In this document: in pieces, positions 4,300-54,403 of the stretch
Layout of the letters: each line of letters begins with the position of its first letter
Position numbering within the stretch: position 1 is the stretch's first letter
Origin: an uncultured Saccharofermentans sp.
Lineage (GTDB): Bacteria; Bacillota; Clostridia; Saccharofermentanales; Saccharofermentanaceae
Length of the DNA stretch: 64,000 bases
NCBI GenBank assembly: GCA_905234715.1
Contig: CAJOJI010000001.1
Coordinates: 8,582-72,581 of the forward strand
Direction: 5' to 3'
Position numbers and translations under genes: made by a program
The notes under the pieces: generated by a model
Told to the model about the DNA's origin: nothing
The model's input: the letters and a program-made list of their open reading frames with translations, nothing else
The model's database searches: none

Positions 4300-5181
4300 T
4301 TAACCGAAGAGAGGTACTACTGCACCGTCGTATGTATCTTCGATGAACTTTGCAACTTCAGGTCCCTGAAGAACTTCTATGAGAGCCTTTACTGCAGGAT
4401 CGTTTGCCTTATCAGGTGATGTTGCAATGATGTTTCCGTATGTCTGTGCTGCAAGACCGTCGTTAGCTTCAACAGCAAGTGCCTGGCTTACGTGGAGGCC
4501 GCCTTCGATCGCATAGTTACCGTTAATGACTGCTACATCTACATCAGGGAGTGCTGCAACGAGCTGCTCAGGTGCAAGTTCCTTGAACTGAATGTTAAGA
4601 GGATTCTCTACGATGTCTTCTACCGTTGCATTGATTCCTGCATCGTCCTTAAGCTTGATGATGCCTTCCTGTGCGAGGAGGAGAAGTGCTCTTGCTTCGT
4701 TTGTTACATTGTTGGGAACTGCGATCACTGCGCCATCCTGGAGGTCCTTAAGATCTTTTACTCTGCCTGCATAGATGCCGAAAGGTTCATAGTGGACTGC
4801 GCCAACTGAAACAAGATCTGAACCGTTTTCTTTATTGAACTGTTCGAGGTAAGGAACGTGCTGGAAATAGTTTGCGTCAAGTGAGCCTTCGATAACGCCT
4901 GTGTTAGGTGTAACGGAATCTTCAAGTCTTACGATCTCGAGAGTGATTCCCTGCTCTGCGAGGATCGGCTTTGCAACTTCCAAGATCTCTGCGTGAGGTG
5001 TGATGTTTGCGCCTACCTTAAGTACTACATTAGCCTGTGCATCAGCCTGAGCTTCTGTCTGCGTATCGCTGCCTACATTTGTATTAACCTGTGTGGGCGC
5101 TGCTTTTCCGCATGCTGCGAATGATCCTGTGATTGCGAATAAAAGTCCTGCGGCAATAGCCTTCTTAATTATGTTTTTCAT
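4300..5181 (-). CDS. metQ: Methionine ABC transporter substrate-binding lipoprotein MetQ/NlpA
   Basis: Lipobox FAAC, PHAEILE, DANYFQHVPYL, AVPNNVTNEARALLLL, AVINGNYA. Confidence 0.92.
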   Translation of the reverse strand: MKNIIKKAIAAGLLFAITGSFAACGKAAPTQVNTNVGSDTQTEAQADAQANVVLKVGANITPHAEILEVAKPILAEQGITLEIVRLEDSVTPNTGVIEGSLDANYFQHVPYLEQFNKENGSDLVSVGAVHYEPFGIYAGRVKDLKDLQDGAVIAVPNNVTNEARALLLLAQEGIIKLKDDAGINATVEDIVENPLNIQFKELAPEQLVAALPDVDVAVINGNYAIEGGLHVSQALAVEANDGLAAQTYGNIIATSPDKANDPAVKALIEVLQGPEVAKFIEDTYDGAVVPLFG

Positions 5182-5246
5182 TTTGGTAATCTCCTTTAGA
5201 TGTGTTTTGTTTAGCTTTTCGCTTTAAGAATGATTTGTTTTGGCAT

Positions 5247-5280
5247 AAAAATGCCCGGTGAGTGATTTATCTCCCGGGCG
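5247..5280 (-). terminator. Attenuator terminator upstream of metQ
   Basis: mRNA GCCCGG-GAG...CUC-A-CCGGGC followed by AUUUUU. It lies between the leader stop and the metQ RBS. Confidence 0.8.
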
Positions 5281-5311
5281 CATGGCATATGTTCAAATGC
5301 AATTTACTGCT

Positions 5312-5437
5312 TTAACATCGATCGTTCTCAAGGCGTGAGGAATGTCTTCTTCCGCCCTGGGCCATATAGCGCACCCGGGAGCCGAGCATTCGACAACACA
5401 TCATCATGTTAGCTGTTGTATTAGTTGTTCTATACAT
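5312..5437 (-). CDS. Leader peptide A, 41 aa: MYRTTNTTANMMMCCRMLGSRVRYMAQGGRRHSSRLENDRC
   Basis: AAAGGAGG RBS 8 nt before ATG 5437, an MMMCCRM codon cluster, and a downstream terminator. Too short for the ORF track. Confidence 0.85.
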   Translation of the reverse strand: MYRTTNTTANMMMCCRMLGSRVRYMAQGGRRHSSRLENDRC

Positions 5438-5468
5438 TTCTCACTCCTCCTTTCGTTGTGATGGCGAT

Positions 5469-5503
5469 ACTTTACTACTCATAACCTACCATGTCAATAG
5501 GTT
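5469..5503 (-). promoter_or_regulatory. Sigma-A promoter (TTGACA-17-TAAAGT) with AACCTA-N9-TAGGTT operator
   Basis: -35 at 5492-5497, -10 at 5469-5474, perfect palindrome arms at 5483-5488 and 5498-5503. Confidence 0.75.
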
Positions 5504-5558
5504 TATTGAAATTTTTTTTCGCTTTCTTGAAAATTCCTGTTTTACTTGCTTTCGCGTA

Positions 5559-6122
5559 TTAAGAGATAACTGTCTTCTGCTTATTCTTATTTACTTCACT
5601 ATGCTGTGACAGCTGATACTTATCGAAAAGTTTTACGTACATAAGCGGTACTGCTCCGACGATCGCAGCACTTGCCTGGATACCGTTGGGAATAACCGAA
5701 CCCAATGCCGCTTCAACACCATACATAAACGGCAGTGATTCAAATGCAAAATAACCGGCGATCATGATGAGTTCGGCAATGAAAGATGCTGACAGTTTTC
5801 TTCCGAGGGAAACTTTTCCCTGAGCATTTCTCTTAAGCAGCAAACCTGCAATAAGGCCCATCACACCTTTGATGAGAAATGTAGCAACTGCATACTGCGG
5901 ATAACCGGCAAGAAGGTCTGCAAGTGTCGATCCGATCGCTGCGGGAACGAATGCAAAAGGTCCCATTATGTATGAAGTTACCAGTATCATAAGGTCACCT
6001 AAATTGATGTGTCCGATCGCTGTCGGAATGTGAAGTTCAGTGCCTACAAATATCAAGGCTGCGAGCACACCTGCGTATGCGATCTTCTTTAAATTGTTTC
6101 TGTTCTTGTCTTTACTGCTCAT
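5559..6122 (-). CDS. ECF transporter S component (HmpT/PdxU-like sequence family)
   Basis: About six hydrophobic helices, with AxxxA-type first helix, INLGD, GSTLADLLAGY and TFLIKG motifs. Confidence 0.85.
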   Translation of the reverse strand: MSSKDKNRNNLKKIAYAGVLAALIFVGTELHIPTAIGHINLGDLMILVTSYIMGPFAFVPAAIGSTLADLLAGYPQYAVATFLIKGVMGLIAGLLLKRNAQGKVSLGRKLSASFIAELIMIAGYFAFESLPFMYGVEAALGSVIPNGIQASAAIVGAVPLMYVKLFDKYQLSQHSEVNKNKQKTVIS

Positions 6123-6152
6123 GTTTTAATTCTCCTTTAACAATTATTTTTA

Positions 6153-6191
6153 CAAAAACAAAAACGGGAATTCTTTTTTAAGAACTCCCGT
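6153..6191 (-). terminator. Attenuator terminator upstream of the ECF S-component gene
   Basis: mRNA ACGGGAGUUCUU-AAAA-AAGAAUUCCCGU (12 bp, one G:U) followed by UUUUGUUUUUG. Confidence 0.85.
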
Positions 6192-6232
6192 ACAGTAACC
6201 ATTTTGCTTTGCGATCTTTATGTCATGGGTAA

Positions 6233-6310
6233 TCAGATCACTCCGGTCATATGCGGGAGGGTGACTAAAGCAGGGCACATGCAGATCATAGTGGCCTGAA
6301 TGCTTTTCAT
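6233..6310 (-). CDS. Leader peptide C, 25 aa: MKSIQATMICMCPALVTLPHMTGVI
   Basis: GGAGGAGGT RBS 7 nt before ATG 6310, an MICMC codon cluster, and a downstream terminator. Confidence 0.75.
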   Translation of the reverse strand: MKSIQATMICMCPALVTLPHMTGVI

Positions 6311-6339
6311 TGTCTTACCTCCTCCGATATGATGCGATA

Positions 6340-6374
6340 AAGTTAACATGTATTACCTATCGTGTCAATGGGTT
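6340..6374 (-). promoter_or_regulatory. Sigma-A promoter (TTGACA-17-TAACTT) with AACCCA-N9-TAGGTA operator variant
   Basis: -35 at 6363-6368, -10 at 6340-6345, palindrome variant at 6354-6374 in the same register as the other three sites. Confidence 0.7.
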
Positions 6375-6477
6375 TATTCTCAAGAATTCAAACATCAAGC
6401 ATAATTTAGTATGTCTTCATAAATATTGTTTTTTGCTATAATCTATCTCGATTTCGGGAAAGAAAAGGAATAACCAT

Positions 6478-7164
6478 ATGAAGAGATTAAAGATAGTATC
6501 AGTAATACTTACGGCATCTGTCCTCGCAGGAATCACGTCCTGCTCATCTGAACCTGCCGGAACAACTTCCTCTTCAATGGAACCTACAACTACGGCAGAA
6601 GTTGAAACAGAAGCAACAACGGCCGAACCTGAGATCACGGAAACCACACGCATCGATCCGCAGTCGACCGAACCTTTATGCCATATCTATTTTGAAGAAT
6701 ACGATTCTTTCGAAGTAACATCGACGGATCTTGTTGACGGCGTATGGGCAGACATAACATCCAACACATTCTTAGGCGAGAACCTTTCACCTCAGCTTTC
6801 ATGGGAGCCTGTCGAAGGCGCTGAAGAATACGTCATCTATATGGTCGACAGAAATTCAAACGGTTTTCTTCAGTGGAAATCTGCAGGAATCAAAACGACT
6901 GAACTCCCTCAGGGATGGACATCCAATCTTACCGAATATAACGGACCGCATCTCGGACACGGATATACACACATTTACGATATTTATGTAATAGCTTTAA
7001 GAGCACCGACGACAAGACTTAAAGGTGCATTAAACGCTGCCAATCCGAGACTTGAAGAATTCTTTGAAGAGATCGATACAGACACCGAAGGCAATACGGG
7101 AAACATCATTGCCTACGGAACAATATCCGGCATATTCACAGACGCAAGATACAGAAATATCTGA
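6478..7164 (+). CDS. YbhB/YbcL (PEBP/Raf kinase inhibitor-like) lipoprotein
   Basis: Lipobox ITSC, T/E-rich linker, GENLSPQLSW...YVIYMVD...YNGP..HGYTHIY.IYVIAL. Confidence 0.7.
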   Translation: MKRLKIVSVILTASVLAGITSCSSEPAGTTSSSMEPTTTAEVETEATTAEPEITETTRIDPQSTEPLCHIYFEEYDSFEVTSTDLVDGVWADITSNTFLGENLSPQLSWEPVEGAEEYVIYMVDRNSNGFLQWKSAGIKTTELPQGWTSNLTEYNGPHLGHGYTHIYDIYVIALRAPTTRLKGALNAANPRLEEFFEEIDTDTEGNTGNIIAYGTISGIFTDARYRNI

Positions 7165-7680
7165 TCAGGTTTTATTGTTCTGAATTTTTTTCGACTTGAT
7201 GATGAAGGTAATTACCGTCACCATGAAGAATGCAAAATAGACCATCATCACGGGTGATACAAGAAGACTCGTAACCATCGATAGAATATCGATGTTAAGT
7301 GAAGCATCCCGGCCGAAGATAAGTTTGTCGCCGCCGGCTACATAATAGATAAAACCAACCGAAATAGAAGCAAAGTAGTAAATTATCAGAGCAATTCCCG
7401 CACCTGTTTTGGTCTTCATTTTCTCACTCGATACCACGATTATGGTGGCAATAAGAAGGAGCACCCCAGAAAAAACAGTCGCAAACATATAGACAGGTAC
7501 AATAGTCTTGGGACTATAGCCTGAAGTTATCAGGGATGAATACTGCGGATTTCCCAGAATGAACTTACCGAACTGCCTGATAATTCCCTTCTGGCATAAG
7601 GTGCAGATGACTATTATCAGAAGCGAGACCAGTACAGGTATTGCCATTCCAATGATCTTTTTCTTATATGTCTTATCCAT
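7165..7680 (-). CDS. Hypothetical membrane protein
   Basis: 171-aa ORF with about four hydrophobic segments and an RBS. Confidence 0.6.
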   Translation of the reverse strand: MDKTYKKKIIGMAIPVLVSLLIIVICTLCQKGIIRQFGKFILGNPQYSSLITSGYSPKTIVPVYMFATVFSGVLLLIATIIVVSSEKMKTKTGAGIALIIYYFASISVGFIYYVAGGDKLIFGRDASLNIDILSMVTSLLVSPVMMVYFAFFMVTVITFIIKSKKIQNNKT

Positions 7681-7715
7681 AGCGTGATTCCTCTTAGTTT
7701 TGCTTCGGTACTATA

Positions 7716-8252
7716 TCACTTATTTTCAGCGTCTCTGAAAACCCTTGAACCGGTAGCGCCTCTTTGTCCCTGATACTTACCGTCGTAAGGATTGATAGCG
7801 TGATCATCCATCTCGGCGAAAACGAGCTGGCCTACTCTTCTTCCCGCCTTAAGCTCAATTGCGCATCTATTTGCATTATAAAGTTCAAGCGTGATCTCGC
7901 CCTTGAAGCCCGGATCTACCCATCCGGCATTCTGAATGAAAAGTCCCATTCTTCCGAGTGAGCTTCTTCCTTCAACAAATGCAGTCAGATTATCGGGGAG
8001 CTCGAAATATTCCATCGTGGTTGCGAGGACAAACTGTCCCGGCATTATGAGATATGTATCTGTCGTGATGGTCTTGTACTTGATCTCATTTTCTAATGTG
8101 ATGACGCTTGAAGGCGTATCATCAACAACGCTGAATGTGCGTCCCAAACGGATATCAACACTTGCAGGCTGGATCTGTTCCTTTGTAACAGGATCGATCA
8201 CAAGTGTTTTTTCTTCAAGCATCTTAAGTATTGTTCTGTCAGATAAGATCAT
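7716..8252 (-). CDS. dcd: dCTP deaminase
   Basis: [51 protein letters not shown]. Confidence 0.93.
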
Positions 8253-9061
8253 ATTTCGCCCTCACGATTCTTATTTAAATTACTTGCAGGAGTATAACAT
8301 ATAACGCTGTTCTCACTGCTGTATTTCTTTCCTTCCAAGAGGCTGAAAGCGTGCTGCTTTCCGACGCCTCCAAACCATTCGTACGGTTTATCCTCAGCGG
8401 TCTTGCCTTCGCATATCTCCCGGATTCCGTTGCGCATGCATCTGATAAGAGATATATCATCAAAATCCTGTGCATGACCGTGAAGGATGCGGTCAGCCCT
8501 GTCTTCAAGGAACATTATCCTGTCCAGAGCTTTTACGTATTCAGGCAGCGGCGAGCAGCCGTCAAGCTGCATCCAAAGATGGTGATTTATCGCATCACCC
8601 GTAAAGAGGATCCTGTCTTCTCTCAAAAGCAGTACGATGCTTCCGGGTGTATGTCCGGGCAGCTCGAAAACTTCCAATGTCTTTCCTCCGATATCGATTA
8701 CATCGCCTTCATTTATTGCTTTAAAAGGCGGCATCTTCAGACCGTATTTTTCGGTTTCTGTTATGAATTCAGGAAGCTTTGTGAACGATTCAGCAAGTTC
8801 AAAATCCTTGGGATCGAGATACGCCTCATCAAAATAAAGATTGCCGAAAATGTGATCCGGATGTCCGTGCGTGTTTACGACAACGATAGGCTTGTCAGTA
8901 ACTTTCCTTACTGCTTTTTTAAGGTCGTTTAAACCGTTCATCGTGTCGATGACACAGACCTTTTCTTCGCCTATAACAAAATAACCTGAAGCCATGTGTC
9001 CTTCATCCATCAAATAGATATCGGGTGTTAATTGCTTAACAAACAACTCAAGTTTTTCCAT
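8249..9061 (-). CDS. MBL-fold metallo-hydrolase
   Basis: [16 protein letters not shown] and LFTGD motifs. Confidence 0.88.
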
Positions 9062-9820
9062 TTAACATTCTCCTTTTATCCTCTTTGCGATCTCGATAGC
9101 AATGTCAAATTTATCGAGCGAATGATTAGCCTCATGCAGTCCCTCGGGAGTGTAATCAGGCTGATCGACAACGTCGCCCGCAACCAGGAAATCGTACAGT
9201 TCAAAACCGTGATAATCACACACGGCCTGAACACCAGCAAGCTCCATTTCGACTGCTATGCAGCCTTCGTCCTTACGCTGCTTTACGAGATCTCTGGTTT
9301 CTCTGTAAAGTGCGTCGGTCGTCCAGACTTTTCCTTTGATGAAAGGAAGTCCTTTTTCATCAAATAGGCCTGCAAGGAAATCCGCATTCTTTATGTCGAT
9401 GTAGTCTGCAGGAGGCGCATAATGATAAGACATTCCTTCATCGCGGTAAGCTTGTGTCGGAATGATATATCTGCCGTTGATCTTATCAGGATCCAATGCT
9501 CCGCACGATCCGAACAGAATAAACTTATCCGAGCCTATCTTCCAGTTGGCTTCCATTACATCCGTAGATGCCAGGCAGGATCCTACTTCAGAAAGATAAA
9601 ATCCGAGCTTCATGCCGTCAACATCGATCAAGTGGATCGGCCTTATCAGATTGCATGAACGGAACTCCTCGATCTTTTCGTTGGGATAGGTATTGAGCAC
9701 CGTCTCGAATATCTCACGTGAGAATGTGATAACTGTTGTATCTACTATCTTTTTCTGCTCTCCGAAAAAAGAAGCCGGAGAGATTATCGCTTCACTGTTA
9801 TCAAAAGAATCGGTTATCAT
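9062..9820 (-). CDS. Nucleoside phosphorylase family protein
   Basis: FGSCGAL, RDEGMSYHY, WTTDALYRET and AVEMELAG motifs. Confidence 0.85.
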   Translation of the reverse strand: MITDSFDNSEAIISPASFFGEQKKIVDTTVITFSREIFETVLNTYPNEKIEEFRSCNLIRPIHLIDVDGMKLGFYLSEVGSCLASTDVMEANWKIGSDKFILFGSCGALDPDKINGRYIIPTQAYRDEGMSYHYAPPADYIDIKNADFLAGLFDEKGLPFIKGKVWTTDALYRETRDLVKQRKDEGCIAVEMELAGVQAVCDYHGFELYDFLVAGDVVDQPDYTPEGLHEANHSLDKFDIAIEIAKRIKGEC

Positions 9821-10308
9821 TTTTCTTTCCTCTCATCAGTCACGAAATGCCTTACAGTTTCAGAAGGGCATTTCAGTTCGCTTCTGAAAAACTCAGGGTA
9901 CATGGTTTTCTCTTCTTCAGGAGATACCCACACAAGATGCTCTTTGCATCCGTCTTCGGTAAAGTCGCTTGATACAGGTTCAAAATCTTCAGGAACTTTC
10001 ATATAGAAGAAATACGACACCTCATATATCAGCTTTCCCCTCCTTGAAAGCAAATCACCGTAGAAATAATTCTCGTGAATAAAGCCAAGTCTGTCGACTT
10101 CCATCTTAATTCCTGTCTCTTCGAATACTTCACGGATCACTGCTTCTTCCGCAGTCTCTCCGAAACGGATCCTGCCGCCCACTGAATAAAGATAGTCGAC
10201 ACGGCTGTTGCCGACCATCAGGAACTTCCCGTTTTTCAGAATAATCGCCCCTACCCTGATGTTGATAAAACCATCATCACAGGGGACTGTCATGTCAGTA
10301 TTTTTCAT
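9817..10308 (-). CDS. NUDIX hydrolase
   Basis: Nudix box GGRIRFGETAEEAVIREVFEETG. Confidence 0.9.
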   Translation of the reverse strand: MKNTDMTVPCDDGFINIRVGAIILKNGKFLMVGNSRVDYLYSVGGRIRFGETAEEAVIREVFEETGIKMEVDRLGFIHENYFYGDLLSRRGKLIYEVSYFFYMKVPEDFEPVSSDFTEDGCKEHLVWVSPEEEKTMYPEFFRSELKCPSETVRHFVTDERKEK

Positions 10309-10379
10309 ATTGAATTCCTATATCCTCTCTGAGCATCCTGGCTCAGATAATTAAGGATTATAACATAAGGATCCCGGAA

Positions 10380-11621
10380 TTAAGGTGCCTCAAATCCGGC
10401 AACATCACTTGCGCCTGAAGACACGACTTCATAAGGTATTCCGTTCTCTTTAAGAAGTGCAAGGAAAGCATCTGCTACAGACGTTCCTTCAAATCTCTGC
10501 TGGACTGAAAGAGAAATATTACCGCCTGCCGCACCTAAAAGGACCATAAGGCTGAAAGTGCATGGCGGATGGGTCCAGAATTCCTTCATGTATTCTCCGA
10601 TCGAAGGATACTTCCATTTTCCCGGATAACTTACCAGATAACTTATAAATCCTTCACCGCCGTTGAACATCGCCGTAAAGATATTTTTTCTTTCCTGCAA
10701 AGATGGTGTCGATGACATTATTCCTTTAACAACTGATGCATTTACTGCAAGTCCTGATGCTACCTGCTCTTCCCTGCTCTGAACGAATGTCTTGCCGCGG
10801 TAAACCGTGCCCTGCATTTCAAGAGGCATCGACTTTACTACAGGAGAATAATCGAAAACCGACATGCCGAGACAGTTATGGTTTGTAGCTTCAGCACCGA
10901 CCATGGGACGCGCATTGATGACATATGCGCTGACGATAGGCTTGGTCCTTTCAGGATATAAAGAATCGATTGTTTTACCCATCAGGAGTTCGACCATCGT
11001 GCCCGGAGTCGAATCGTTTTCGCGCACAAATTTCACGAAGGCATCTTCAGGGATTATTATGTCCCAGATCAGAGGTGATGACTTAGTAAGTCCGCCGTCA
11101 GTCTCCAATGTAAAAGCAGGAGAATATGCCGCATCAGGAGCAGGCACTTCTTCCATCGTGTCCTGCGGATCTGCCATCTCGGCAGCGATATCTGAAGATT
11201 CAAGTTCAGGTATTTCATCTATTCCGTAAAACATCCTGCAGTAGTTATAAAGGATCACCGCAAGCACTCTGTACATTCCGGTGCCGTCCGTAATGCCATG
11301 GAAGAAATCCAGATAAATGAAGTCTTCTTTATATGACACAGACCAGACGTGAAAATTGGTTTCTTCAGAATTCAGGATTACACGAGAATCACCTTCACGT
11401 ACCACTATCGGAAGATCGTTATCCGCATATTCATAGGAGTCGCCTGTGCATACGAGGCGCCCCATGAAATAAGGGAATCTTGAAGATGCAAAAGATACAG
11501 CAGAGAACAACACAACAGGATCGACATTATCTTTAAGTCTGACCTTGAACCTGACCGTGTAATCAACACCTGCGCCGATCGCACCGTAAACATGCATTGT
11601 ATCTCCGGTAGTGATCTTCAT
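10380..11621 (-). CDS. CoA-dependent acyltransferase / condensation-like protein
   Basis: FFHGITDGTG matches the HxxxDG motif; VINARP and SYPG segments; 413 aa. Confidence 0.55.
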   Translation of the reverse strand: MKITTGDTMHVYGAIGAGVDYTVRFKVRLKDNVDPVVLFSAVSFASSRFPYFMGRLVCTGDSYEYADNDLPIVVREGDSRVILNSEETNFHVWSVSYKEDFIYLDFFHGITDGTGMYRVLAVILYNYCRMFYGIDEIPELESSDIAAEMADPQDTMEEVPAPDAAYSPAFTLETDGGLTKSSPLIWDIIIPEDAFVKFVRENDSTPGTMVELLMGKTIDSLYPERTKPIVSAYVINARPMVGAEATNHNCLGMSVFDYSPVVKSMPLEMQGTVYRGKTFVQSREEQVASGLAVNASVVKGIMSSTPSLQERKNIFTAMFNGGEGFISYLVSYPGKWKYPSIGEYMKEFWTHPPCTFSLMVLLGAAGGNISLSVQQRFEGTSVADAFLALLKENGIPYEVVSSGASDVAGFEAP

Positions 11622-11673
11622 GCCGTGTTCACCTCGTTTGAAGAATTGCTGTTCTTATTATACTAAACGCTGT

Positions 11674-12489
11674 TTATGCTTTTGTGGCAGAGATGATGAA
11701 ATGAGGGCTGATGCCCATCATGGATTCTTCGTGTTCCGTGGTCCTTATTATCTTTAAAAGTCTCTCGCGCTTATCGTCATCTTTCCACTTCTCAGCAATA
11801 TCGGGAGTGATCCATGAACAGCCTTCGACAGCAGCACTCTCTGTTACCTTAAAACCTGCTTCGCTGATCTCATCTCTTAATCCGTCGATGGTGTGGAAAT
11901 ATGCATTTGAGATAAAGTAAGGATATTCCTTAGGTCTTATGTGTTCACCTGTTTCCATCTCGCGCATTATCATGTCCATATAAATGTCATCGCTGATGAA
12001 TTCGTTGGCAGTTCCGTAAACAGTCAGAGCCCATGTTGCCGAACTGAATTTTGATATTCCGGCAGCGATCAGAATGCCGTTATCCTTAAGCACACGGTAC
12101 GCCTCCGAAAGAACAGTCAGTCTGTCTTCCTTACTCATCAGATGATAAAGAGGTCCCATGAGAAGCACCATGTCTGCACTGTTGTCAGGCTTGTCAATTT
12201 TACGTGCGTCTCCTACTTCAGCTTCATACGGAACCGTCATGTGTTCTTTTGCATAATCGACAGCCGTGGGAGCAAGCTCGATAAGTGTTACTTCATGTCC
12301 CATGGAAGCAAGCCATTCGGCATACTTTCCGATGCCTCCGCCGATATCGTAGATCTTCATCTTGCCGTTAAGATATCTGCTGATAATTTCTTTGCTTCTC
12401 CAGAACTCAACAACACCGAGGCCTCTTTCAAGACGTCCTATCTCAGCGCCGTTGTTATAAAATTCATATACTTCATCTATTCTTTCCAT
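11674..12489 (-). CDS. Class I SAM-dependent methyltransferase
   Basis: IYDIGGGIG, GDAR, DMVLLMGPLYHL. Confidence 0.88.
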   Translation of the reverse strand: MERIDEVYEFYNNGAEIGRLERGLGVVEFWRSKEIISRYLNGKMKIYDIGGGIGKYAEWLASMGHEVTLIELAPTAVDYAKEHMTVPYEAEVGDARKIDKPDNSADMVLLMGPLYHLMSKEDRLTVLSEAYRVLKDNGILIAAGISKFSSATWALTVYGTANEFISDDIYMDMIMREMETGEHIRPKEYPYFISNAYFHTIDGLRDEISEAGFKVTESAAVEGCSWITPDIAEKWKDDDKRERLLKIIRTTEHEESMMGISPHFIISATKA

Positions 12490-12503
12490 ATTCTTTTACT
12501 CCG

Positions 12504-13016
12504 TTAATCATTCAAGACCGAATCTATGGCCTGTTCGTAATCATCTTCTATCAATGTGACTGCCTGACCGAACCGCTGTCGGAATGTTTGATTGTCAGCT
12601 TTAATGCTTTCCATTGTGCAGTCATCATAAAGTCTCTTCTCGACAACAGACTCTTTATCCTTTATGTCGTCGAAATGCTTTTCGATGTAATCATCTGAAA
12701 ATGCGAGACAGATAAACCTTATAGATGATTGATATTGATCGTCAAAATCCTGCTGCCAGTTGTGCGGAACATAGCATCCTTCAATGATCATGTCCTGGCC
12801 ATTCTCGATCGCGGTCTTGATCATCTCTCTTACGACGGGCCAGAGGTAATCTGTAAGCTTGTCATCATCCATGGGAGTAAGATCAGTCATGCCGCTTCTT
12901 ATGAGGCCCATCTTCAGGTGGTCTATGGACATGCAGGGATAGTTATATTTCCCGATCAGCTTCTTAGCGAGAAATGTCTTTCCTGTATGTGTTGCACCTG
13001 TAATCAGTATGATCAT
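12504..13016 (-). CDS. P-loop kinase-like / AAA family protein
   Basis: Walker A GATHTGKT and IIEG motif. Confidence 0.7.
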   Translation of the reverse strand: MIILITGATHTGKTFLAKKLIGKYNYPCMSIDHLKMGLIRSGMTDLTPMDDDKLTDYLWPVVREMIKTAIENGQDMIIEGCYVPHNWQQDFDDQYQSSIRFICLAFSDDYIEKHFDDIKDKESVVEKRLYDDCTMESIKADNQTFRQRFGQAVTLIEDDYEQAIDSVLND

Positions 13017-13047
13017 TTATTATCTCCATATGTCTTTAGCGAAAAGT

Positions 13048-13947
13048 TTACCCCCAAGATTCGATCGCTTCAACAGAGAGATCCACAAGATGTTCGCCTT
13101 CCACTCCGTCCATTGTATGTGTAGCTCCTTCGATAACGAAAAACTGCACATTCGGGAACGCAGCTAATGCAGGCTTGAAGAAATCGGGATCTTCTCCGAA
13201 GCTTCCCTCAGTTCCCGTGAATATGATCACAGGTATCTTGCATGTCTCAAGGATCGGATAGAGGTCTCTGTCTATCAGGACTTCATCTTCGAACCACATG
13301 ATTTCGGGAGCATAAAAACTCGGATCGACAAGTATAAGTCCTTTGATCTCATCCTGCCTGTAGGTTCCCGCGTAGCATACAACGATGCCGCCCATACTGT
13401 GTCCGTACAGATAGATATTCGAAGTATCAACTTCAGGAAGATATTCACATGAATCAATAACGGCGTACAGGTCTTTTATCTGGTCCACAACAAAGTTGCC
13501 CAGAAACGCCGGATCCTCACCTGACTCAGGACGCGTGCCATTCTGACAGAGAAATTCGATTACCGCAAAACCGTGCTCGCTGTAATGCTCGGCTTTATCC
13601 GAATATCTTCCGAGAGGCGCATATAATCCGCTGGTAATTATGATCGTCTTAAAAGGCCCCTGACCCTGGGGAACTGTAAGCCTGGCGTAGATCTCGCCTC
13701 CGTCGCGGTAGAAGATTACTTCCTTCGTTCTGCCTTCACTCTTTGAAACCGCAGGCATTAATATCGAATACTCGATGGGCGGGAATTCTTCCACCTTGAC
13801 CAGTCTTGTCTTGATTGGCTGTCTATCGGCATTTTCATTCATCACTTTACCGGGCTTTACAGGCTGCGGTTTTGAACACGAAGCCAGAAGGCAGGCGGTA
13901 ACTACTATCAATATCAGACACTTTATTCTTGATGATCTTTTTCTCAT
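13048..13947 (-). CDS. Alpha/beta hydrolase lipoprotein
   Basis: Lipobox LASC, nucleophile elbow GHSMGG, C-terminal GATH. Confidence 0.8.
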   Translation of the reverse strand: MRKRSSRIKCLILIVVTACLLASCSKPQPVKPGKVMNENADRQPIKTRLVKVEEFPPIEYSILMPAVSKSEGRTKEVIFYRDGGEIYARLTVPQGQGPFKTIIITSGLYAPLGRYSDKAEHYSEHGFAVIEFLCQNGTRPESGEDPAFLGNFVVDQIKDLYAVIDSCEYLPEVDTSNIYLYGHSMGGIVVCYAGTYRQDEIKGLILVDPSFYAPEIMWFEDEVLIDRDLYPILETCKIPVIIFTGTEGSFGEDPDFFKPALAAFPNVQFFVIEGATHTMDGVEGEHLVDLSVEAIESWG

Positions 13948-15071
13948 TACTTCATGATAACAAGCTCGTAATCACGTGTTCCGATTCCGATCTTCTCTCC
14001 GTGTTCAAGTGTTTCTTCCCACGAAACATTCGGATTGCTGTTGTGCCAGACATCACCGTGATCGTGGAAATGATCACTGTTCATATTATCACCTAACTGG
14101 CTGTTTCTGACAGGCTCGGCCTTCTGGCAGAGATCAACGCACGCCTGGTCCAGAGCAACCGGATCAAATGAAGCGAGCATTCCGATATCAGGAAGGATGG
14201 GCGCATCGTTCTCACCGTGGCAGTCGCAGTTCGGCGAAACATCCGTGATAAGACTTATGTGGAAGTTCGGTCTGCCGCTGATGACAGCTGCCGTATACTC
14301 GGCCATCTTTCTTCCAAGCATCGATGCTGCATCCCAGTTATCGTTTTCGATGGCATCGAATGCGCATGCTCCGATGCAGCGGCCGCATCCCTTACACTTA
14401 TCGGGATCGATCCTCGCTTTGCCGTTCTCGTAGATAAATGCGTCTGAACCGCATTCCTTAGAGCATCTTCTGCACCCTTTGCAGCGTTCGGTGATAACAT
14501 GGGGATGGCCGCTCTGATGTTGCTGCATCTTACCCGCACGGGAACCGCAACCCATGCCGATGTTCTTTATACAGCCGCCGAAGCCGGCCTGCTCATGTCC
14601 TTTGAAATGCGTAAGGGAGATAAAGATATCGGCATCCATTACGGCACGGCCGATGTAAGCTTCCTTGCAGTACTCACCATTGGGAACAGGAACGATTATG
14701 TCGTCAGTTCCTCTAAGTCCGTCAGCGATGATTATCTGGCATCCGGTAGTTATCGTGTTAAAACCGTTGATATTAGCGCAGTCCAGGTGTTCGAGCGCAT
14801 GCTTACGGCTTCCGGGATAAAGCGTATTGCAGTCGGTTAAAAAAGGCATTCCGCCGAGTTCTTTAACAACGTCAGCTACAGCCTTCGCATAATTGGGTCT
14901 TAAATATGCGAGATTTCCAAGTTCGCCGAAATGCATCTTGATCGCAACAAACTTGTTGTCCATATCGATAGACTGGATTCCCGCAAGCCTTATGAGCTTT
15001 TGAAGCTTGGCAGTAAGAGGCGTACCAAGACCCGTACGAAAATCAGTAAAATACACTTTTGATTTATCCAT
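13947..15071 (-). CDS. DUF362 domain protein with two 4Fe-4S ferredoxin motifs
   Basis: VAIKMHFGE, HFKGHE, KNIGMG, and two CxxCxxCxxxC motifs. Confidence 0.85.
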   Translation of the reverse strand: MDKSKVYFTDFRTGLGTPLTAKLQKLIRLAGIQSIDMDNKFVAIKMHFGELGNLAYLRPNYAKAVADVVKELGGMPFLTDCNTLYPGSRKHALEHLDCANINGFNTITTGCQIIIADGLRGTDDIIVPVPNGEYCKEAYIGRAVMDADIFISLTHFKGHEQAGFGGCIKNIGMGCGSRAGKMQQHQSGHPHVITERCKGCRRCSKECGSDAFIYENGKARIDPDKCKGCGRCIGACAFDAIENDNWDAASMLGRKMAEYTAAVISGRPNFHISLITDVSPNCDCHGENDAPILPDIGMLASFDPVALDQACVDLCQKAEPVRNSQLGDNMNSDHFHDHGDVWHNSNPNVSWEETLEHGEKIGIGTRDYELVIMK

Positions 15072-15176
15072 TTAGCACCTCCCGGCAATAATCAGACTAT
15101 CGTTCAGATAGAAAAATTATAGCATTTTGGAGGTGCAAAAATGAATTATATTACGGTCTTATCTGTTCAGTTCCTT

Positions 15177-15830
15177 TTATGTCTTTCTGTGCTTCTTGGA
15201 CATCCAAATACCGATTTCCTGAATGAGCATTACCATGATTATCAGTAATGCAACCGTGGTAAAGAGAACATCTTTCTGGTAGCTGTAATAGCCGTACTGC
15301 AGTGCAATTGCACCGAGTCCGCCACCTCCGATGACGCCTGCCATTGCAGAGTAACCGAGTACGGTTGCAACGTTGATGGCGCCGCCCTGAAGAAGTGAAG
15401 GTGTTGCTTCAGGAATGATGAAATGAAGTATCGTATAAAGAGGTGATGCACCCATTGATGTGGCGGCTTCAATAATTCCCGGCTGTACTTCATTAAGCGA
15501 TGATTCGACCATTCGCGCAACGATCGGGATAGCGCCTATCGTGAGAGGTACGATTGCAGCCGTGGTACCGATGGACTGGCCTACGATAAATCTCGTAAAC
15601 GGGATGAGGAGCACGAGGAGGATCAGGAACGGCAATGACCGAGTGATGTTTACGATGGCTCCGATAATGAAGTTGACGGGCCTGTTCTCGAGCAGACGTC
15701 CTTTTGATGTCGCATAGAGCAGGACGCCCAAAGGCATTCCGACCGCATATGAAAAAAGCGAAGCGAAGAATGTCATTACAAACGTCTCCCAGACACCTGT
15801 TATTATTGCTTCTCTGATGTAATCACTCAT
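15177..15830 (-). CDS. metI: Methionine ABC transporter permease MetI
   Basis: VNITRSLPFLILLV, ARMVESSL, YSAMAGVIGGGGLG. Confidence 0.93.
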   Translation of the reverse strand: MSDYIREAIITGVWETFVMTFFASLFSYAVGMPLGVLLYATSKGRLLENRPVNFIIGAIVNITRSLPFLILLVLLIPFTRFIVGQSIGTTAAIVPLTIGAIPIVARMVESSLNEVQPGIIEAATSMGASPLYTILHFIIPEATPSLLQGGAINVATVLGYSAMAGVIGGGGLGAIALQYGYYSYQKDVLFTTVALLIIMVMLIQEIGIWMSKKHRKT

Positions 15831-16830
15831 ATCTGTTTACCTCCGACACCGACAGGCCGCCCTTTCTGAAAAAGTCGATGACAGTCTTACGGTCCTTTTC
15901 AGATTCAGGCAGTTCGATGATCATCTGACCGTAACCGATGCCGCCGACGCTTCTCGTGTTCGCACTCAGGATGTTTACCTTAAGGCCTGTCTCCTCAACG
16001 AGATTTGCAATGAACGGCACGTTCGACTGTGTGCCGTCGAAAACGATTCTTACAAGCTGTCCGTTCTCATCAGAAGGATCGAAAGGATTGCTCGGGAATA
16101 CGAGTTTTTTCGCTGCTTTCGACCGGGGATTTGAAAAGACTTCCTTAACATCGCCTATCTCTGCAAGAGTACCGTCATCTATAATGGCAACACGGTCGCA
16201 GATCTTTTCCACAACACTCATCTCGTGCGTAATTATGACGATCGTCAGTTTTCTTTCTTCGTTGATCTTCTTCAAAAGATCCAGTATCTCGCCCGTTATC
16301 TTCGGATCAAGAGCGCTCGTTGCCTCATCGCACAAAAGCACTTTCGGATCTACTGCAAGCGCTCTTGCTATGGCAACTCTCTGCTTCTGACCGCCCGAAA
16401 GACGTGCGGGATATTCATTTGCCTTCTCAAGAAGACCAACGATCTCAAGCATCTGTTTTGCCTTTTCGCGTCTGATATTGCGCGGTGTTCCGATGATCTT
16501 CAAAGACTGCTCAACGTTCTGGATAACAGTGCGCTGGTTGATAAGATTGAAGCCCTGGAAGATCATGGAGATCGAATGTCTTACTTCTCGAAGTTCTTTG
16601 GGCTTAAGTGCAGCAAGATCATCTCCGTAGAAATTAACCGTACCCGAGCTGACTTCCTCAAGTCTGTTCAGCGTTCGTACAAGTGTTGATTTGCCTGCAC
16701 CGCTCATGCCGATTATGCCGAATATCTCACCTTCATTTATGGTAAGACTTACATCCTTGAGCGCAGTGAATTCCTTGCCGTCGTTCTTATAAGTCTTGTA
16801 TACGTTTTTTAATTCATATACGTTTTCCAT
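15823..16830 (-). CDS. metN: Methionine ABC transporter ATP-binding protein MetN
   Basis: GMSGAGKST, LSGGQKQRV, LCDEATSALDP, C-terminal NIL domain. Confidence 0.93.
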   Translation of the reverse strand: MENVYELKNVYKTYKNDGKEFTALKDVSLTINEGEIFGIIGMSGAGKSTLVRTLNRLEEVSSGTVNFYGDDLAALKPKELREVRHSISMIFQGFNLINQRTVIQNVEQSLKIIGTPRNIRREKAKQMLEIVGLLEKANEYPARLSGGQKQRVAIARALAVDPKVLLCDEATSALDPKITGEILDLLKKINEERKLTIVIITHEMSVVEKICDRVAIIDDGTLAEIGDVKEVFSNPRSKAAKKLVFPSNPFDPSDENGQLVRIVFDGTQSNVPFIANLVEETGLKVNILSANTRSVGGIGYGQMIIELPESEKDRKTVIDFFRKGGLSVSEVNRYE

Positions 16831-17745
16831 TTAATCGAATAATCCTTTGCTTAAATATCTGTCTCCTCTGTCAGGGAAAACAGTTACTATGTTTCCTTCA
16901 TCAATTTCTTCCGCAAGCTTAAGTGCTGCCGCAAGTGCCGCACCTGATGAAGAACCGGCAAGAATGCCTTCGTGCTTTGCGAGTTCTCTTGAAGCATTGA
17001 ATGCTTCATCGTCATTGATCTTTATGACCTTATCAACAAGCGTGATATCCATCGTATCTGCTATAAAGTCGTTGCCGATACCTTCGATGTTGTAATCGAA
17101 ATGTTCTCCTCCGCCGATCGTTGAACCGTAAGGATCTGCAAGAACTCCGACGATATCCGGGTTTTGCTCCTTGAGATACTTAACGACTCCGGAGAATGTT
17201 CCGCCGCTTCCTGCGCCTGCTACAAAGTAATTGATATTACCGTCAAGCTGTGAATAGATTTCAGGTCCTGTTGTCTCATAGTGAGCAAGAGGGTTAGCGG
17301 GATTTCTGAACTGTCTTAATGAAACAGAACCTGGAATGGTCTTAAGTATTTCTTCGGCTTTCTGCTCTGCTCCGAGCATTCCGCCTTCTCTTGATGTGTG
17401 AACGATTTCGGCACCCAATGCCTTCATGACTTTCTGCTTCTCGACTGAGAACTTTTCAGGCACCGTGAATATTACTCTGTATCCCTGGTTAAGCGCTGCA
17501 ACTGCGATTCCGATACCGGTATTGCCCGCTGTGGCATCAACGATCGTTCCGCCTTCTTTAAGTATTCCTCTCTTTCTTGCGTCATCGATCATGTAAACGC
17601 CTACACGGTCTTTTACGCTTCCTGCGGGGTTCATAAGTTCAAGTTTTGCATAGATATTTACTCCGGGCTTAATGCCCATATGGGAGATCTTAAGGATCGG
17701 AGTATTACCGATCATCTGTCTTACATTTTCATATACGTTATTCAT
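16831..17745 (-). CDS. mccA: PLP-dependent cysteine synthase family, MccA-like (O-acetylserine-dependent cystathionine beta-synthase)
   Basis: NPAGSVKDR, TAGNTGIG, FSVEKQ and GAGSGGTF; adjacent to an mccB-like gene. Confidence 0.75.
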   Translation of the reverse strand: MNNVYENVRQMIGNTPILKISHMGIKPGVNIYAKLELMNPAGSVKDRVGVYMIDDARKRGILKEGGTIVDATAGNTGIGIAVAALNQGYRVIFTVPEKFSVEKQKVMKALGAEIVHTSREGGMLGAEQKAEEILKTIPGSVSLRQFRNPANPLAHYETTGPEIYSQLDGNINYFVAGAGSGGTFSGVVKYLKEQNPDIVGVLADPYGSTIGGGEHFDYNIEGIGNDFIADTMDITLVDKVIKINDDEAFNASRELAKHEGILAGSSSGAALAAALKLAEEIDEGNIVTVFPDRGDRYLSKGLFD

Positions 17746-17755
17746 TTCATTTACC

Positions 17756-18910
17756 TCACGCCTTAACGGAATTCTCGATTGCCTGCTTCAGATCTGCGAT
17801 CAGATCATCAACATCTTCAATGCCTACTGAAAGTCTGATGAGTTCATCAACGATTCCTACTTCTTTTCTGATGTCAGCAGGGATTGCTGCATGTGTCATC
17901 GTTGCAGGATGGCATACGAGTGATTCAACGCCGCCCAAACTTTCTGCAAGAGTAATGAGCTGAAGCTTCTCGAAAAACAACTTGTAATCGTACTTGTCGT
18001 TAAGAACAAATGAGATCATTGCGCCGGCACCGTCAGCCTGCTTTTTCTGGATCTCATAACCCGGATCAGTCTTAAGACCGGGATAGTAAACCTTGCTTAC
18101 ATAACCGCTGTCCACGAGCCACTCAGCAACCTTCTGCGCATTCGCAACATGTCTGTCCATACGGACACCTAAAGTCTTGATACCTCTTATGATGAGGAAG
18201 CTGTCCCAGGGTGCAAGCACTCCGCCGATTGCATTCTGCAGATAGTAAAGTCTGTCCGCAAGCTGCTTGTCGTTTACTACCACGAAGCCTGAAATCGTAT
18301 CAGAGTGACCGCCGAGATATTTTGTTCCGCTGTGGATTACGATGTCTGCACCGAGCGTCAAAGGTCTCTGAAGATAAGGTGTAAGGAATGTGTTGTCTAC
18401 GATAACGAGCTTGTCGTGCTTCTTGCCGATCTTGGATACCGCTTCGATATCAGTGATCGTGAGAAGCGGGTTTGCAGGTGTCTCGATATAGATTGCTTTT
18501 ACATCATCGTCGATCGCATTTTCGACAGCTTCAAGATCGGATGTATCAACGATCTTGTATGTGATATTGAAGTTCTTGAAAACGTTGTCGAGGATACGGA
18601 ACGTACCACCGTAAATGTTATCCGAAACGATGAGCTTATCGCCTGATTTAAAGAGCGAGAGAACCGTGTTGATGGCAGCAAGTCCTGATGCGAATGCAAG
18701 ACCGTACTGTCCTTCTTCGAGATCTGCAATGAGCTTCTCGAGTGCTGCTCTGGTGGGGTTGCCAGTTCTCGAATATTCCCAACCTCTGTTTTTGCCTAGA
18801 CCGTCCTGCTTATATGTAGATGTCTGGTATACGGGAATGTTTACCGCACCTGTTGTCTCGTCTCCGTCAATACCGCCGTGTATAAGTAAAGAATTTCTTT
18901 TGTAACTCAT
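17756..18910 (-). CDS. mccB: Cystathionine gamma-lyase, MccB-like (Cys/Met metabolism PLP family)
   Basis: PVYQTSTY, EYSRTGNPTR, HSGTKYLGGHSD, LAESLGGVESL. Confidence 0.75.
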   Translation of the reverse strand: MSYKRNSLLIHGGIDGDETTGAVNIPVYQTSTYKQDGLGKNRGWEYSRTGNPTRAALEKLIADLEEGQYGLAFASGLAAINTVLSLFKSGDKLIVSDNIYGGTFRILDNVFKNFNITYKIVDTSDLEAVENAIDDDVKAIYIETPANPLLTITDIEAVSKIGKKHDKLVIVDNTFLTPYLQRPLTLGADIVIHSGTKYLGGHSDTISGFVVVNDKQLADRLYYLQNAIGGVLAPWDSFLIIRGIKTLGVRMDRHVANAQKVAEWLVDSGYVSKVYYPGLKTDPGYEIQKKQADGAGAMISFVLNDKYDYKLFFEKLQLITLAESLGGVESLVCHPATMTHAAIPADIRKEVGIVDELIRLSVGIEDVDDLIADLKQAIENSVKA

Positions 18911-18936
18911 TTTATTTTCCTTCTTTCGTAATTTGC

Positions 18937-18972
18937 AAAAATTAAGCCCGGGATGAGCGATCTTCCCGGGCT
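18937..18972 (-). terminator. Attenuator terminator upstream of mccB
   Basis: mRNA AGCCCGGGA-(10-nt loop)-UCCCGGGCU followed by UAAUUUUU. Confidence 0.85.
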
Positions 18973-18999
18973 GTTGGTGGTTGATGTTTTATATTGAAG

Positions 19000-19098
19000 T
19001 CAACATCGCACATCGTCAAGGCGCATGTTCATGCAGTCAAACGCCAAGGCCGATTCAGCCCCTGGAATATGCATTCGACAACACATGATCATTAACAT
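19000..19098 (-). CDS. Leader peptide B, 32 aa: MLMIMCCRMHIPGAESALAFDCMNMRLDDVRC
   Basis: GGAGG RBS 8 nt before ATG 19098. Shares MxMCCRM and RLxxxRC-stop with leader A. Confidence 0.87.
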   Translation of the reverse strand: MLMIMCCRMHIPGAESALAFDCMNMRLDDVRC

Positions 19099-19138
19099 TT
19101 CGTTCGCCTCCGTTTTTGGTTTTCTATGGCATGCACAC

Positions 19139-19172
19139 ATTATGCCACATAAACCTACCTTGTCAATAGGTT
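19139..19172 (-). promoter_or_regulatory. Sigma-A promoter (TTGACA-16-TGnCATAAT) with AACCTA-N9-TAGGTT operator
   Basis: -35 at 19161-19166, -10 at 19139-19144, perfect palindrome at 19152-19172, immediately after the iscU stop. Confidence 0.75.
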
Positions 19173-19179
19173 ATTCAGA

Positions 19180-19560
19180 TTATTTTTCTTCCTGCCTGGA
19201 TTCATAGTCCTTGAGAGCAGCTTCAATTGCTTCCTGTGCAAGGACTGAACAGTGCATCTTATAGTCAGGCAGACCGTCCAAAGCTTCTGCAACTGCTTTG
19301 TTTGTAAGCTGTCTTGCTTCCTCAACGGGCTTGCCCTTGATGAGTTCAGTTGCCATTGAGCTTGATGCAATTGCGCTTCCGCATCCGAATGTCTCGAACT
19401 TAACATCCTTTACGATGTCATCTTCGATCTTGAGATACATCTTCATGATGTCTCCGCACTTAGCGTTACCTACTGTGCCTACACCGTTTGCGTCTTCAAG
19501 AACGCCTACGTTTCTCGGATTTCTGAAATGATCCATTACTTTCTCACTATATAAAGCCAT
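19180..19560 (-). CDS. iscU: Fe-S cluster scaffold IscU/NifU
   Basis: YSEKVMDHFRNPRNVG, CGD, FGCGSAIAS, KMHCS. Confidence 0.95.
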   Translation of the reverse strand: MALYSEKVMDHFRNPRNVGVLEDANGVGTVGNAKCGDIMKMYLKIEDDIVKDVKFETFGCGSAIASSSMATELIKGKPVEEARQLTNKAVAEALDGLPDYKMHCSVLAQEAIEAALKDYESRQEEK

Positions 19561-19572
19561 GTTGATGCCCCC

Positions 19573-20790: not shown

Positions 20791-20825
20791 ATCATAATTC
20801 GTTTAACCCACCAAGTCAATAGGTT
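20791..20825 (-). promoter_or_regulatory. iscS promoter (TTGACT-17-TATGAT) with AACCTA-N9-TGGGTT operator variant
   Basis: -35 at 20814-20819, -10 at 20791-20796, palindrome at 20805-20825. Confidence 0.75.
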
Positions 20826-54207: not shown

Positions 54208-54233
54208 GACAATCCCTCCTTTAAGATTGATGA

Positions 54234-54345: not shown

Positions 54346-54403
54346 ATGTTACGGGATAATTATATCACCTGTGATATCTGTAAAAACATCACAGAGAAAC
54401 ACT

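Follow-up and report, generated by a model that had tools for sequence, protein, structure and literature searches.

The window analysed here, a stretch of 64,000 nucleotides (nt) from an uncultured Saccharofermentans sp. (GenBank assembly GCA_905234715.1, contig CAJOJI010000001.1, positions 8,582 to 72,581), carries on its minus strand two short leaders, A and B, each ahead of genes for methionine and cysteine. The gene after leader A (4300-5181, minus strand) encodes an NlpA/MetQ-type lipoprotein, the substrate-binding protein of a methionine ATP-binding cassette (ABC) transporter (PF03180, E 1.5e-84). Leader B precedes an operon (15177-18910, minus strand) of a pyridoxal phosphate (PLP) enzyme of Cys/Met metabolism (17756-18910), a PALP enzyme of CysK/CBS type (16831-17745), a MetN-type ATPase with a NIL domain (15823-16830) and a MetI-type permease (15177-15830). 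The leaders have in common a 16-mer, ATGTGTTGTCGAATGC, and a tail, CGCCTTGA...CGATGTT, that encodes RLxxxRC directly before the stop codon. Exactly two copies of the 16-mer exist in the window (5386-5401 and 19071-19086, each on the minus strand), against 0.04 chance matches expected with up to two mismatches allowed. A sequence-only reading of this DNA had proposed that A and B are translated Cys-codon leaders ahead of terminators and had pointed to the tail as unexplained. We find that the first proposal is right, and we consider it likely that A and B are leader-peptide transcription attenuators sensing charged tRNA-Met and tRNA-Cys, with the tail serving as RNA parts of the switch. The argument is built on the anatomy of the leaders, their pairings and covariation, the reading frame, codon statistics and gene association.

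Leader A begins with a promoter dyad, AACCTATTGACATGGTAGGTT (5483-5503), that overlaps a -35 hexamer (TTGACA), and its -10 element is TAAAGT (5469-5474). The Shine-Dalgarno (SD) region, AAAGGAGGAGTGAG (5440-5453), is also the 5' arm of a long-range SD:anti-SD helix with CCTCACGCCTT. The open reading frame (ORF) of 41 codons plus stop, MYRTTNTTANMMMCCRMLGSRVRYMAQGGRRHSSRLENDRC, runs from 5437 to 5312. Block 2 (5386-5407; ATG ATG ATG TGT TGT CGA ATG C) holds the Met/Cys sensor codons, and its GUCGAAUGC (5386-5394) is in most relatives the 5' arm of the putative anti-antiterminator helix P0. Next come the 5' arms of three helices, P1 (CTCCCGGGTGCG, 5370-5381, codons L-G-S-R-V-R), P1b (ATGGC, 5361-5365) and P2 (CCAGGGCG, 5353-5360). 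The segment CCTCACGCCTTGAG (5327-5340) provides the P2 3' arm or, alternatively, the anti-SD arm, and contains the RL codons CGCCTT (5330-5335). The tail end, CGA TGT TAA (R-C-stop, 5312-5320), is the 5' arm of helix P3 with the stop codon inside it. Beyond the ORF lie the 3' arms of P3 (TTGAACAT, 5289-5296), P1b (GCCAT, 5282-5286) and P1 (GCGCCCGGGAG, 5271-5281), and an intrinsic terminator, GCCCGGGAG...CCGGGC followed by ATTTTTAT (5245-5279; -16.8 kcal/mol, z -4.1).

Leader B is built to the same plan. Its promoter dyad is AACCTATTGACAAGGTAGGTT (19152-19172), with a -10 element CATAAT preceded by TG (19139-19144), and its SD is CGGAGGCGAACG (19101-19112). The ORF of 32 codons plus stop, MLMIMCCRMHIPGAESALAFDCMNMRLDDVRC, runs from 19098 to 19000; the start of this ORF and the end of ORF A, at 5312, are the two positions between which the sequence-only reading had placed its observation. 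Block 2 lies at 19071-19092, and the putative anti-antiterminator region that includes it spans 19036-19092: P0 pairs GUCGAAUGC (19071-19079) with GCGUUUGAC (19036-19044) and encloses both a hairpin, H1 (GGCUGAAUCGGCC, 19048-19060), and the P1 5' arm (UUCCAGGGGCUG, 19056-19067). The tail, GCGCCTTGAC...CGATGTTGA (19000-19024), has RL at 19018-19023 and RC-stop at 19000-19008, and is followed by the P3 3' arm (AACATC, 18983-18988), the P1 3' arm (CAGCCCGGGAA) and the terminator (GCCCGGGAAGATCGCTCATCCCGGGC then TTAATTTTT), the last two within 18937-18973 (-19.5 kcal/mol, z -4.4). Between each leader ORF and its gene the terminators are thus GC-rich hairpins with U-runs, at z about -4 in A and in B.

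The tail codons are CGC CTT GAG AAC GAT CGA TGT TAA in A and CGC CTT GAC GAT GTG CGA TGT TGA in B, so the identical 16-mer and the RLxxxRC-stop tail that had been reported for the pair are borne out by the window search and by reading the ORFs. The two blocks said to be shared are both real, and they do not stand alone: pairwise alignment adds the 21-bp promoter dyad AACCTATTGACAnGGTAGGTT around the -35 hexamer, the SD (GGAGG) and the terminator (GCCCGGGA...CCGGGC, a GC-rich hairpin and then a U-run). The 17 codons (A) or 16 codons (B) that separate the blocks had been taken for unrelated sequence. Instead they form equivalent helices, and a single covariance model aligns A and B at full length.

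That model comes from a family that we collected in two scans, one genome per species, with differing anchors, the first using the 16-mer and the second the arms CTCCCGGGCA...TGCCCGGGAG, which placed no constraint on block 2 or the tail; family counts, fractions and statistics given here are among the matches listed by these two scans. Together they yield at least 121 distinct leaders of the same layout. A T-run downstream of the leader was required for membership and is present in every member. The covariance model, R1, rests on 98 sequences, none of them from the window or its five nearest relatives. It nevertheless finds A with 73.5 bits (E 8.8e-19) and B with 51.3 bits (E 1e-12), both over the full length, and its next-best match in the window scores 8.2 bits. 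Nearly all hosts are rumen or gut Clostridia (Lachnospiraceae, Oscillospiraceae/Ruminococcaceae, Saccharofermentans, Christensenellales and Blautia, with a few cultured strains, among them Lachnospiraceae bacteria XBB2008 and AC2029, Ruminococcaceae bacterium KHP2 and Clostridium porci), and several leader copies per genome are often seen. Among the matches listed, the leaders closest to A and B are in Saccharofermentans metagenome-assembled genomes from ruminants. DNA of the window itself is found in bovine and goat gut metagenomes.

At 112 loci the first downstream gene is mostly one of three types, Cys_Met_Meta_PP (59), NlpA/MetQ (35) or SBP_bac_3 (15). The first are PLP enzymes mostly of the size of O-acetylhomoserine sulfhydrylase, and the last are family-3 solute-binding proteins of the cystine type. 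At both leaders Rfam reports no family at the gathering score and no plausible match up to E 10, and the literature we searched held no description of this leader family. A and B are copies of one widespread, apparently undescribed family of regulatory switches in gut and rumen Clostridia. The complete identity of both blocks in A and B, third codon positions included, is what a recent duplication would leave behind, and one could suppose that the shared blocks are mere leftover identity without function. This is scarcely credible: more than 100 leaders, from Lachnospiraceae, Oscillospiraceae, Saccharofermentans, Christensenellales and others, retain the blocks while the stretch that separates these has diverged, and A and B belong to different subfamilies (that of B being the smaller), each with its own orthologues.

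Family-wide, the leaders are read as protein-coding sequence. In 97 of 102 leaders the ATG nearest the SD, 5-12 nt past GGAGG, shares the reading frame of the sensor codons. ORFs differ little in length (median 40 codons, interquartile range 38-42), while the other two frames meet their first stop after 4 and 17 codons, and the stop codon alternates between TGA, TAG and TAA at one fixed position. The first ~12 codons are variable and almost free of Cys. The sensor consensus after them is M-M-C-C-R-M, as judged from a set of 61 leaders ascertained without block 2; Cys stands at its two positions in 46/61 and 51/61 leaders, and Met at the two codons preceding the Cys pair in 23/61 and 28/61. In the six codons before R, 59 of these 61 leaders have at least one Cys and 47 have at least two. 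TGC alternates with TGT at the sensor Cys positions, and ATG triplets in the four codons before CC number 128 in frame against 4 and 2 in the other frames, from which we conclude that Met and Cys are selected here as codons. The same frame bias supports the earlier suggestion that Met is part of the sensing logic. Overall, Cys makes up 9.7% and Met 10.8% of the residues of family leaders, and Cys makes up 1.4% in the genes of the window.

Directly after the sensor a different kind of constraint appears. The Arg following CC is encoded by CGA in all 55 leaders that have Arg there, with no synonym, so GUCGAAUGC is constrained as nucleotides. The AUG two codons after CC is invariant and is located in the GUCGAAUGC arm of P0; the earlier suggestion that a ribosome halted at this Met could hide the antiterminator is not supported.

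Helices were tested on an alignment of 103 sequences, with partners slid against each other as controls. RNAalifold on MAFFT alignments recovered P1 only, and P1b and P2 were evaluated from a structure given by hand; P3, which is not alignable by column, was tested sequence by sequence. P1, P1b and P2 together are 89.8% paired, compared with 23-56% for slid partners, and 13 of their pairs show double changes. P1 itself (CUCCCGGGCA with UGCCCGGGAG) is 99.7% paired, with compensatory changes from GC to AU and from AU to GC, and P1b (AUGGC with GCCAU) and P2 (GGGGCG with CGCCUY) covary at seven of nine pairs. Since UGCCCGGGAG doubles as the 5' arm of the terminator, P1 is an antiterminator. In 96 of 106 leaders exactly two hairpins, P2 and P3, lie inside P1/P1b, which makes the structure a three-way junction; that of leader A (5271-5381) folds at -47.2 kcal/mol (z -5.1). 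An alternative set of pairings, comprising SD:RL, P0 and H1, is 72.3% paired compared with 35-42% for slid partners. The SD:anti-SD helix (alignment columns 34-42 with 188-196) is 68% paired, and columns 41/189 and 42/188, which lie outside the SD core, covary strongly. P0 (GUCGAAUGC with GCGUUCGGC) encloses H1 (UCCCGG/CCGGGG); the two are 76-82% paired, and minimum-energy folds of the nascent RNA contain P0 in 77 and H1 in 91 of 106 leaders. In leader B they are clear (-20.0 kcal/mol, z -2.8).

A conserved three-way junction with invariant stretches that overlaps a terminator is also what many riboswitches look like, and the strong association with Met/Cys genes would suit an aptamer for a metabolite such as a sulfur compound, with the ORF incidental. 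We regard this as very unlikely. Rfam gives no match even up to E 10, and an incidental ORF would not be expected to keep an SD and ATG in frame, a tight length next to frames rich in stops, Met and Cys selected as codons, and a stop whose identity varies while its place is kept. The leader family is more probably one of ribosome-mediated transcription attenuators.

It remains to account for the tail. RLxxxRC-stop occurs in about a quarter to a third of the family, including all four B-type copies, so the tail found in A and B is conserved in homologues as well. Codons were compared in 30 leaders ending in RLxxx(R/K)(C/H/Q)-stop. Of the two Arg, the first is encoded by CGC in 28/30 and the second by CGA in 28/30; TGT encodes Cys in 28/28 and CTC or CTT encodes Leu, while the three middle codons are unconstrained. 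Two Arg residues fixed as two different codons point to selection on nucleotides and not on amino acids, and this comparison of synonymous with non-synonymous change, which had been proposed as a check, places the conservation of the tail at the nucleotide level. Both conserved blocks use CGA and TGT, codons that in the genes of the window encode 2.9% of Arg and 36% of Cys residues, respectively.

The pairings agree with this. RL pairs with the GGGGCG block at 4.8 of 6 nt in the predicted thermodynamic ensemble; it is the P2 3' arm or, alternatively, the anti-SD, and covariation backs both pairings. Two leaders with CGU CUU carry GGAGAC or GGAGAU in the SD region. CGAUGUU pairs with a segment past the stop at 4.4 of 7 nt in the ensemble, and the duplexes of tail and partner are better than those with shuffled partners (z -1.13, p 3e-6). 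Variants of the tail in which covariation preserves the pairing include CGGCAU/AUGCCG, CGACAU/AUGUGUCG and GCUG/CAGC. Many peptides of the family have other ends, such as ...CCT-stop, ...RCADV-stop or ...APKENT-stop. Across the family the stop is in or next to P3: in 106 leaders it falls in the P3 5' arm in 38, in the loop in 40, in the 3' arm in 10 and at most 6 nt upstream in 17 (105/106). The universal feature is thus the hairpin holding the stop, and not the peptide. The tail is conserved mainly as RNA helix arms and a precisely placed stop codon. An RNA element was one of the options that had been offered for it, and codon fixation, pairing and covariation all favour that option.

Another of those options was a nascent-peptide arrest motif, in which RLxxxRC would stall the ribosome at the stop codon as in TnaC, perhaps in response to free cysteine. 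A conserved C-terminal peptide does stand directly at the stop in A, B and ~30 relatives, and the RNA switch is itself predicted to be influenced by the ribosome's position at the stop. Such a motif should hold its amino acids, and here each Arg keeps a codon of its own (CGC and CGA) instead of spreading over synonyms, the three residues in the middle are free to vary, the spacing from sensor to tail varies, and most of the family has unrelated C-termini with structure and stop placement retained. We therefore find arrest highly improbable.

Other partners and roles for the tail were considered and set aside. A partner just before block 2 was inconsistent (mean z -0.67), one in the 5' untranslated region (UTR) reached z -0.38, and pairing directly with block 2, judged by eye, amounted to at most five weak pairs. 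A second ORF from the AUG inside CGAUGUU is not conserved and in leader A ends after four codons. A precursor of a ribosomally synthesized and post-translationally modified peptide was rejected, there being no maturation genes nearby and the downstream genes being metabolic. A separate observation concerns CATC in the 5' UTR, 14-36 nt before the ATG and close to where transcription is predicted to start: leaders with this motif tend also to have GATG in the tail (Fisher odds ratio 14, p 2e-6). The association hints that the 5' end may pair with the tail and so lengthen the SD:RL helix; the energy tests are weak, and shared descent could also explain it.

The last codons may in addition be read as codons, so that the tail would be conserved as codons as well as RNA, which is compatible with the RNA role. 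Two versions can be distinguished: in one, the rare Arg codon CGA, the minor, wobble-read Cys codon UGU and the stop park the ribosome on P2/P3, and in the other the supply of Cys is sampled again at the end of the ORF. The peptide ends in Cys in 42 of 106 leaders (27 of 66 after thinning to <65% identity), and TGT is the codon in 39 of these 42. Within the last eight codons UGY occurs 123 times in frame, compared with 61 and 39 times in the other two frames; thinning to <65% identity leaves 67 against 41 and 14, and leaders lacking the GATGT motif have 52 against 36 and 21. CGA and TGT, uncommon in the genes of the window as noted above, are nonetheless used in both conserved blocks. UGU-stop is retained where the preceding codon differs (GGT, ATC, TTC or CAG), one relative (L071:1262-1475(+)) ends in ...K-R-M-C-C-stop (CGA ATG TGT TGT TAG), a near copy of the block-2 sensor, and a sliding scan across the whole leader found no RNA partner for the tail stronger than P3. 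Against this, UGY is raised out of frame too in this region, so part of the Cys excess reflects helix composition; where His replaces Cys, covariation preserves the pairing of P3, and this speaks for RNA; and 60% of leaders end without Cys. Moreover, a ribosome stalled at the last codon would be expected to block P2/P3 and let P0/H1 reform, giving termination under Cys shortage, and a stall that favours termination argues against a simple second starvation sensor. On balance we treat a second codon-level site as a possibility, and as the less probable account of the tail.

A more elaborate form of this idea, which we think rather doubtful, is that Met/Cys supply is read at two places, MMCC deciding antitermination and the C-terminal Cys (often Met/Cys) cluster, with its rare CGA and wobble-read UGU next to the stop, setting how long the ribosome is parked on P2/P3, the anti-SD segment newly freed behind it. 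The second site would then tune basal termination, or lock the leader's own SD, by way of the same tRNAs. If true, this would be a two-checkpoint leader peptide, of which the classical attenuators offer no described case. What stays odd in any case is the fixed CGA-UGU-stop together with the excess of Cys near the C-terminus.

For the attenuator with an RNA tail, the classical trp/his attenuators can serve as a model for the timing of events, for ribosome footprints and for how the switch would respond to Met and Cys. The conserved promoter would give a short RNA with an SD-led ORF of ~40 codons, in which ~12 variable codons precede M-M-C-C-R-M. In the off state GUCGAAUGC, which begins within the second Cys codon, would pair with GCGUUCGGC ~35 nt downstream to form P0; H1 inside P0 would tie up CUCCCGGG, the P1 5' arm, RL would pair with the SD, and the terminator would form. 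In the on state a ribosome whose A site has reached one of the Met or Cys codons of MMCC would stall there and cover GUCGAAUGC. It should extend ~12-13 nt downstream, ending right before CUCCCGGG, whose start is 12 nt past the second Cys codon. The freed CUCCCGGGCA could then pair with UGCCCGGGAG and, with the help of P1b, P2 and P3, complete the three-way-junction antiterminator, allowing readthrough into the genes of Met/Cys uptake and synthesis.

The tail would have its place in the same scheme, with CGCCUY as the P2 3' arm or the anti-SD to the leader's own SD, and CGAUGUU and the stop as the P3 5' arm. Because the ORF ends inside P3, an undelayed ribosome should unwind and occupy P2 and P3, and it would sit there at the stop while the polymerase makes the terminator. 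In leaders with RLxxxRC-stop, RL at -21 to -16 from the stop would be just behind a ribosome at the stop, and P0 should be able to reform only after the ribosome has reached the last codons. The last seven codons may therefore be the span that allows P0/H1 while denying P2/P3, which would give a reason for the fixed stop and its spacing.

Several points weigh against this account. Covariation is almost absent from P0, since its 5' arm is close to invariant, and this makes P0 the least certain helix of the model; for leader A no P0 is predicted (z 0.04). With a mean of -5.6 kcal/mol P3 is a weak hairpin, which does not fully explain the near-invariance of CGAUGU, CGA-UGU-stop being almost invariant within its subfamily. 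Thermodynamically the naked RNA favours the antiterminator, so the off state would have to rest on kinetics. Transcription and translation are often uncoupled in Firmicutes, so the model would need a pause site that has escaped detection. A simple terminator scan did not have the hairpins of A and B in its list, probably since its fixed stem and loop criteria are unsuited to them, and metatranscriptome runs contain the locus as assembled contigs of related strains, which are uninformative on 3' ends, termination and conditions. Concerning the leader A subfamily, we observed that leader A and its close relatives are without the usual P0 partner GCGUUCGGC and have a predicted 5-bp hairpin instead, GUCGA with UCGGC directly downstream (5386-5398, minus strand). 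The anti-antiterminator may be built differently there.

The promoters of A and B belong to a wider pattern. An imperfect palindrome of 17 bp, CCTATTGACAnnGTAGG, overlaps the -35 hexamer and lies ~64 nt upstream of the leader ATG; 96 of 117 family leaders, in many Clostridial families, have it, and among 211 fetched loci it is present in 88. Leader C (6154-6374, minus strand), the third in the window and a divergent one, also has the dyad (6354-6374) and a strong terminator (6154-6191), and its ORF, MKSIQATMICMCPALVTLPHMTGVI (6233-6310), has M-I-C-M-C in place of MMCCRM. The gene downstream (5559-6122, minus strand) is for the S component of an energy-coupling factor (ECF) transporter, and model R1 gives no match to leader C. 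A fourth copy of the dyad, with two mismatches (20805-20825, minus strand), is ahead of nifS-nifU (19180-20763), with no leader there. CCTATTGACAnnGTAGG looks like a putative operator for a regulator of a sulfur/Fe-S regulon, acting on top of attenuation. No obvious regulator for it (for example, of Rrf2 type) was present in window-wide Pfam summaries, the last of which gave the commonest 25 of 50 families. Elsewhere the window has an Rfam match to the aptamer of the azaaromatic (yjdF) riboswitch (54225-54349 on the minus strand, 73 bits, E 9e-13), is rich in GNAT acetyltransferase genes (7 of 50 further ORFs), and includes several methyltransferases and two-component and EAL/HD-domain signalling genes.

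The thr and ilv attenuators sense more than one amino acid, and the trp attenuator uses only two adjacent key codons. The present family resembles these and the other classical attenuators of Enterobacteria (his, leu, pheA) on both counts. It also has a short SD-led ORF with codons for the regulated amino acids, and a terminator, an antiterminator and a putative anti-antiterminator that exclude one another, the first helix presumably being masked by a stalled ribosome. It differs in having no sequence relationship to them and in belonging to Clostridia, in an ORF that runs through the antiterminator 5' arm and P2 to end inside P3, in a three-way-junction antiterminator instead of a single hairpin, in an anti-SD arm to its own SD, and in presumably sensing Met together with Cys. 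With TnaC and other arrest leaders it shares the proposal that ribosome occupancy at the end of the leader ORF decides downstream transcription. In arrest peptides, however, amino acids are conserved at a fixed distance from the stall site, whereas here nucleotides are conserved and the tail is not family-wide.

Leader-peptide attenuators have been reported in few cases outside Proteobacteria and Actinobacteria and are reported to be rare in Firmicutes (PMC2965389). Upstream of cysS in Rhodobacterales, the uORFC-8-2 motif has been predicted to act as a ribosome-mediated attenuator, with a tandem pair of Cys codons and an intrinsic terminator (PMC8632094). Tandem Cys codons in an upstream ORF followed by an intrinsic terminator are common to it and our family. 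It is, however, alphaproteobacterial, uses mainly UGC, serves only cysteinyl-tRNA synthetase, has two stems with the Cys codons inside the first, and has neither Met codons nor a conserved tail nor sequence similarity to our leaders. In mycobacteria, leaderless short ORFs with runs of Cys codons make operons cysteine-responsive via ribosome stalling, at loci called a 'ribulon' (bioRxiv 10.1101/834739), and Cys attenuators have been predicted in Actinobacteria (PMC1262725). These are Cys-codon short ORFs before cysteine-metabolism operons and, like A, B and C, they occupy several loci per genome. The mycobacterial ORFs are leaderless and act on translation, unmasking the next gene's ribosome binding site, whereas our family has an SD, an intrinsic terminator, and Met as well as Cys codons. 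None of the Cys-codon leaders compared is related in sequence, and none has Met as well as Cys codons together with both a three-way-junction antiterminator and an anti-SD.

These leaders show how an apparently conserved peptide end can be the shadow of RNA helix arms. Met/Cys genes of Firmicutes have been thought to be governed by T-boxes and S-adenosylmethionine (SAM) riboswitches, and leader-peptide attenuators are textbook material for Proteobacteria. The family merits annotation, so that its leader ORFs are not called hypothetical proteins. It is found in many rumen and gut Clostridia, often in several copies and paired with an equally conserved promoter operator, and for these reasons it probably sets the uptake and synthesis of sulfur amino acids in abundant gut anaerobes.

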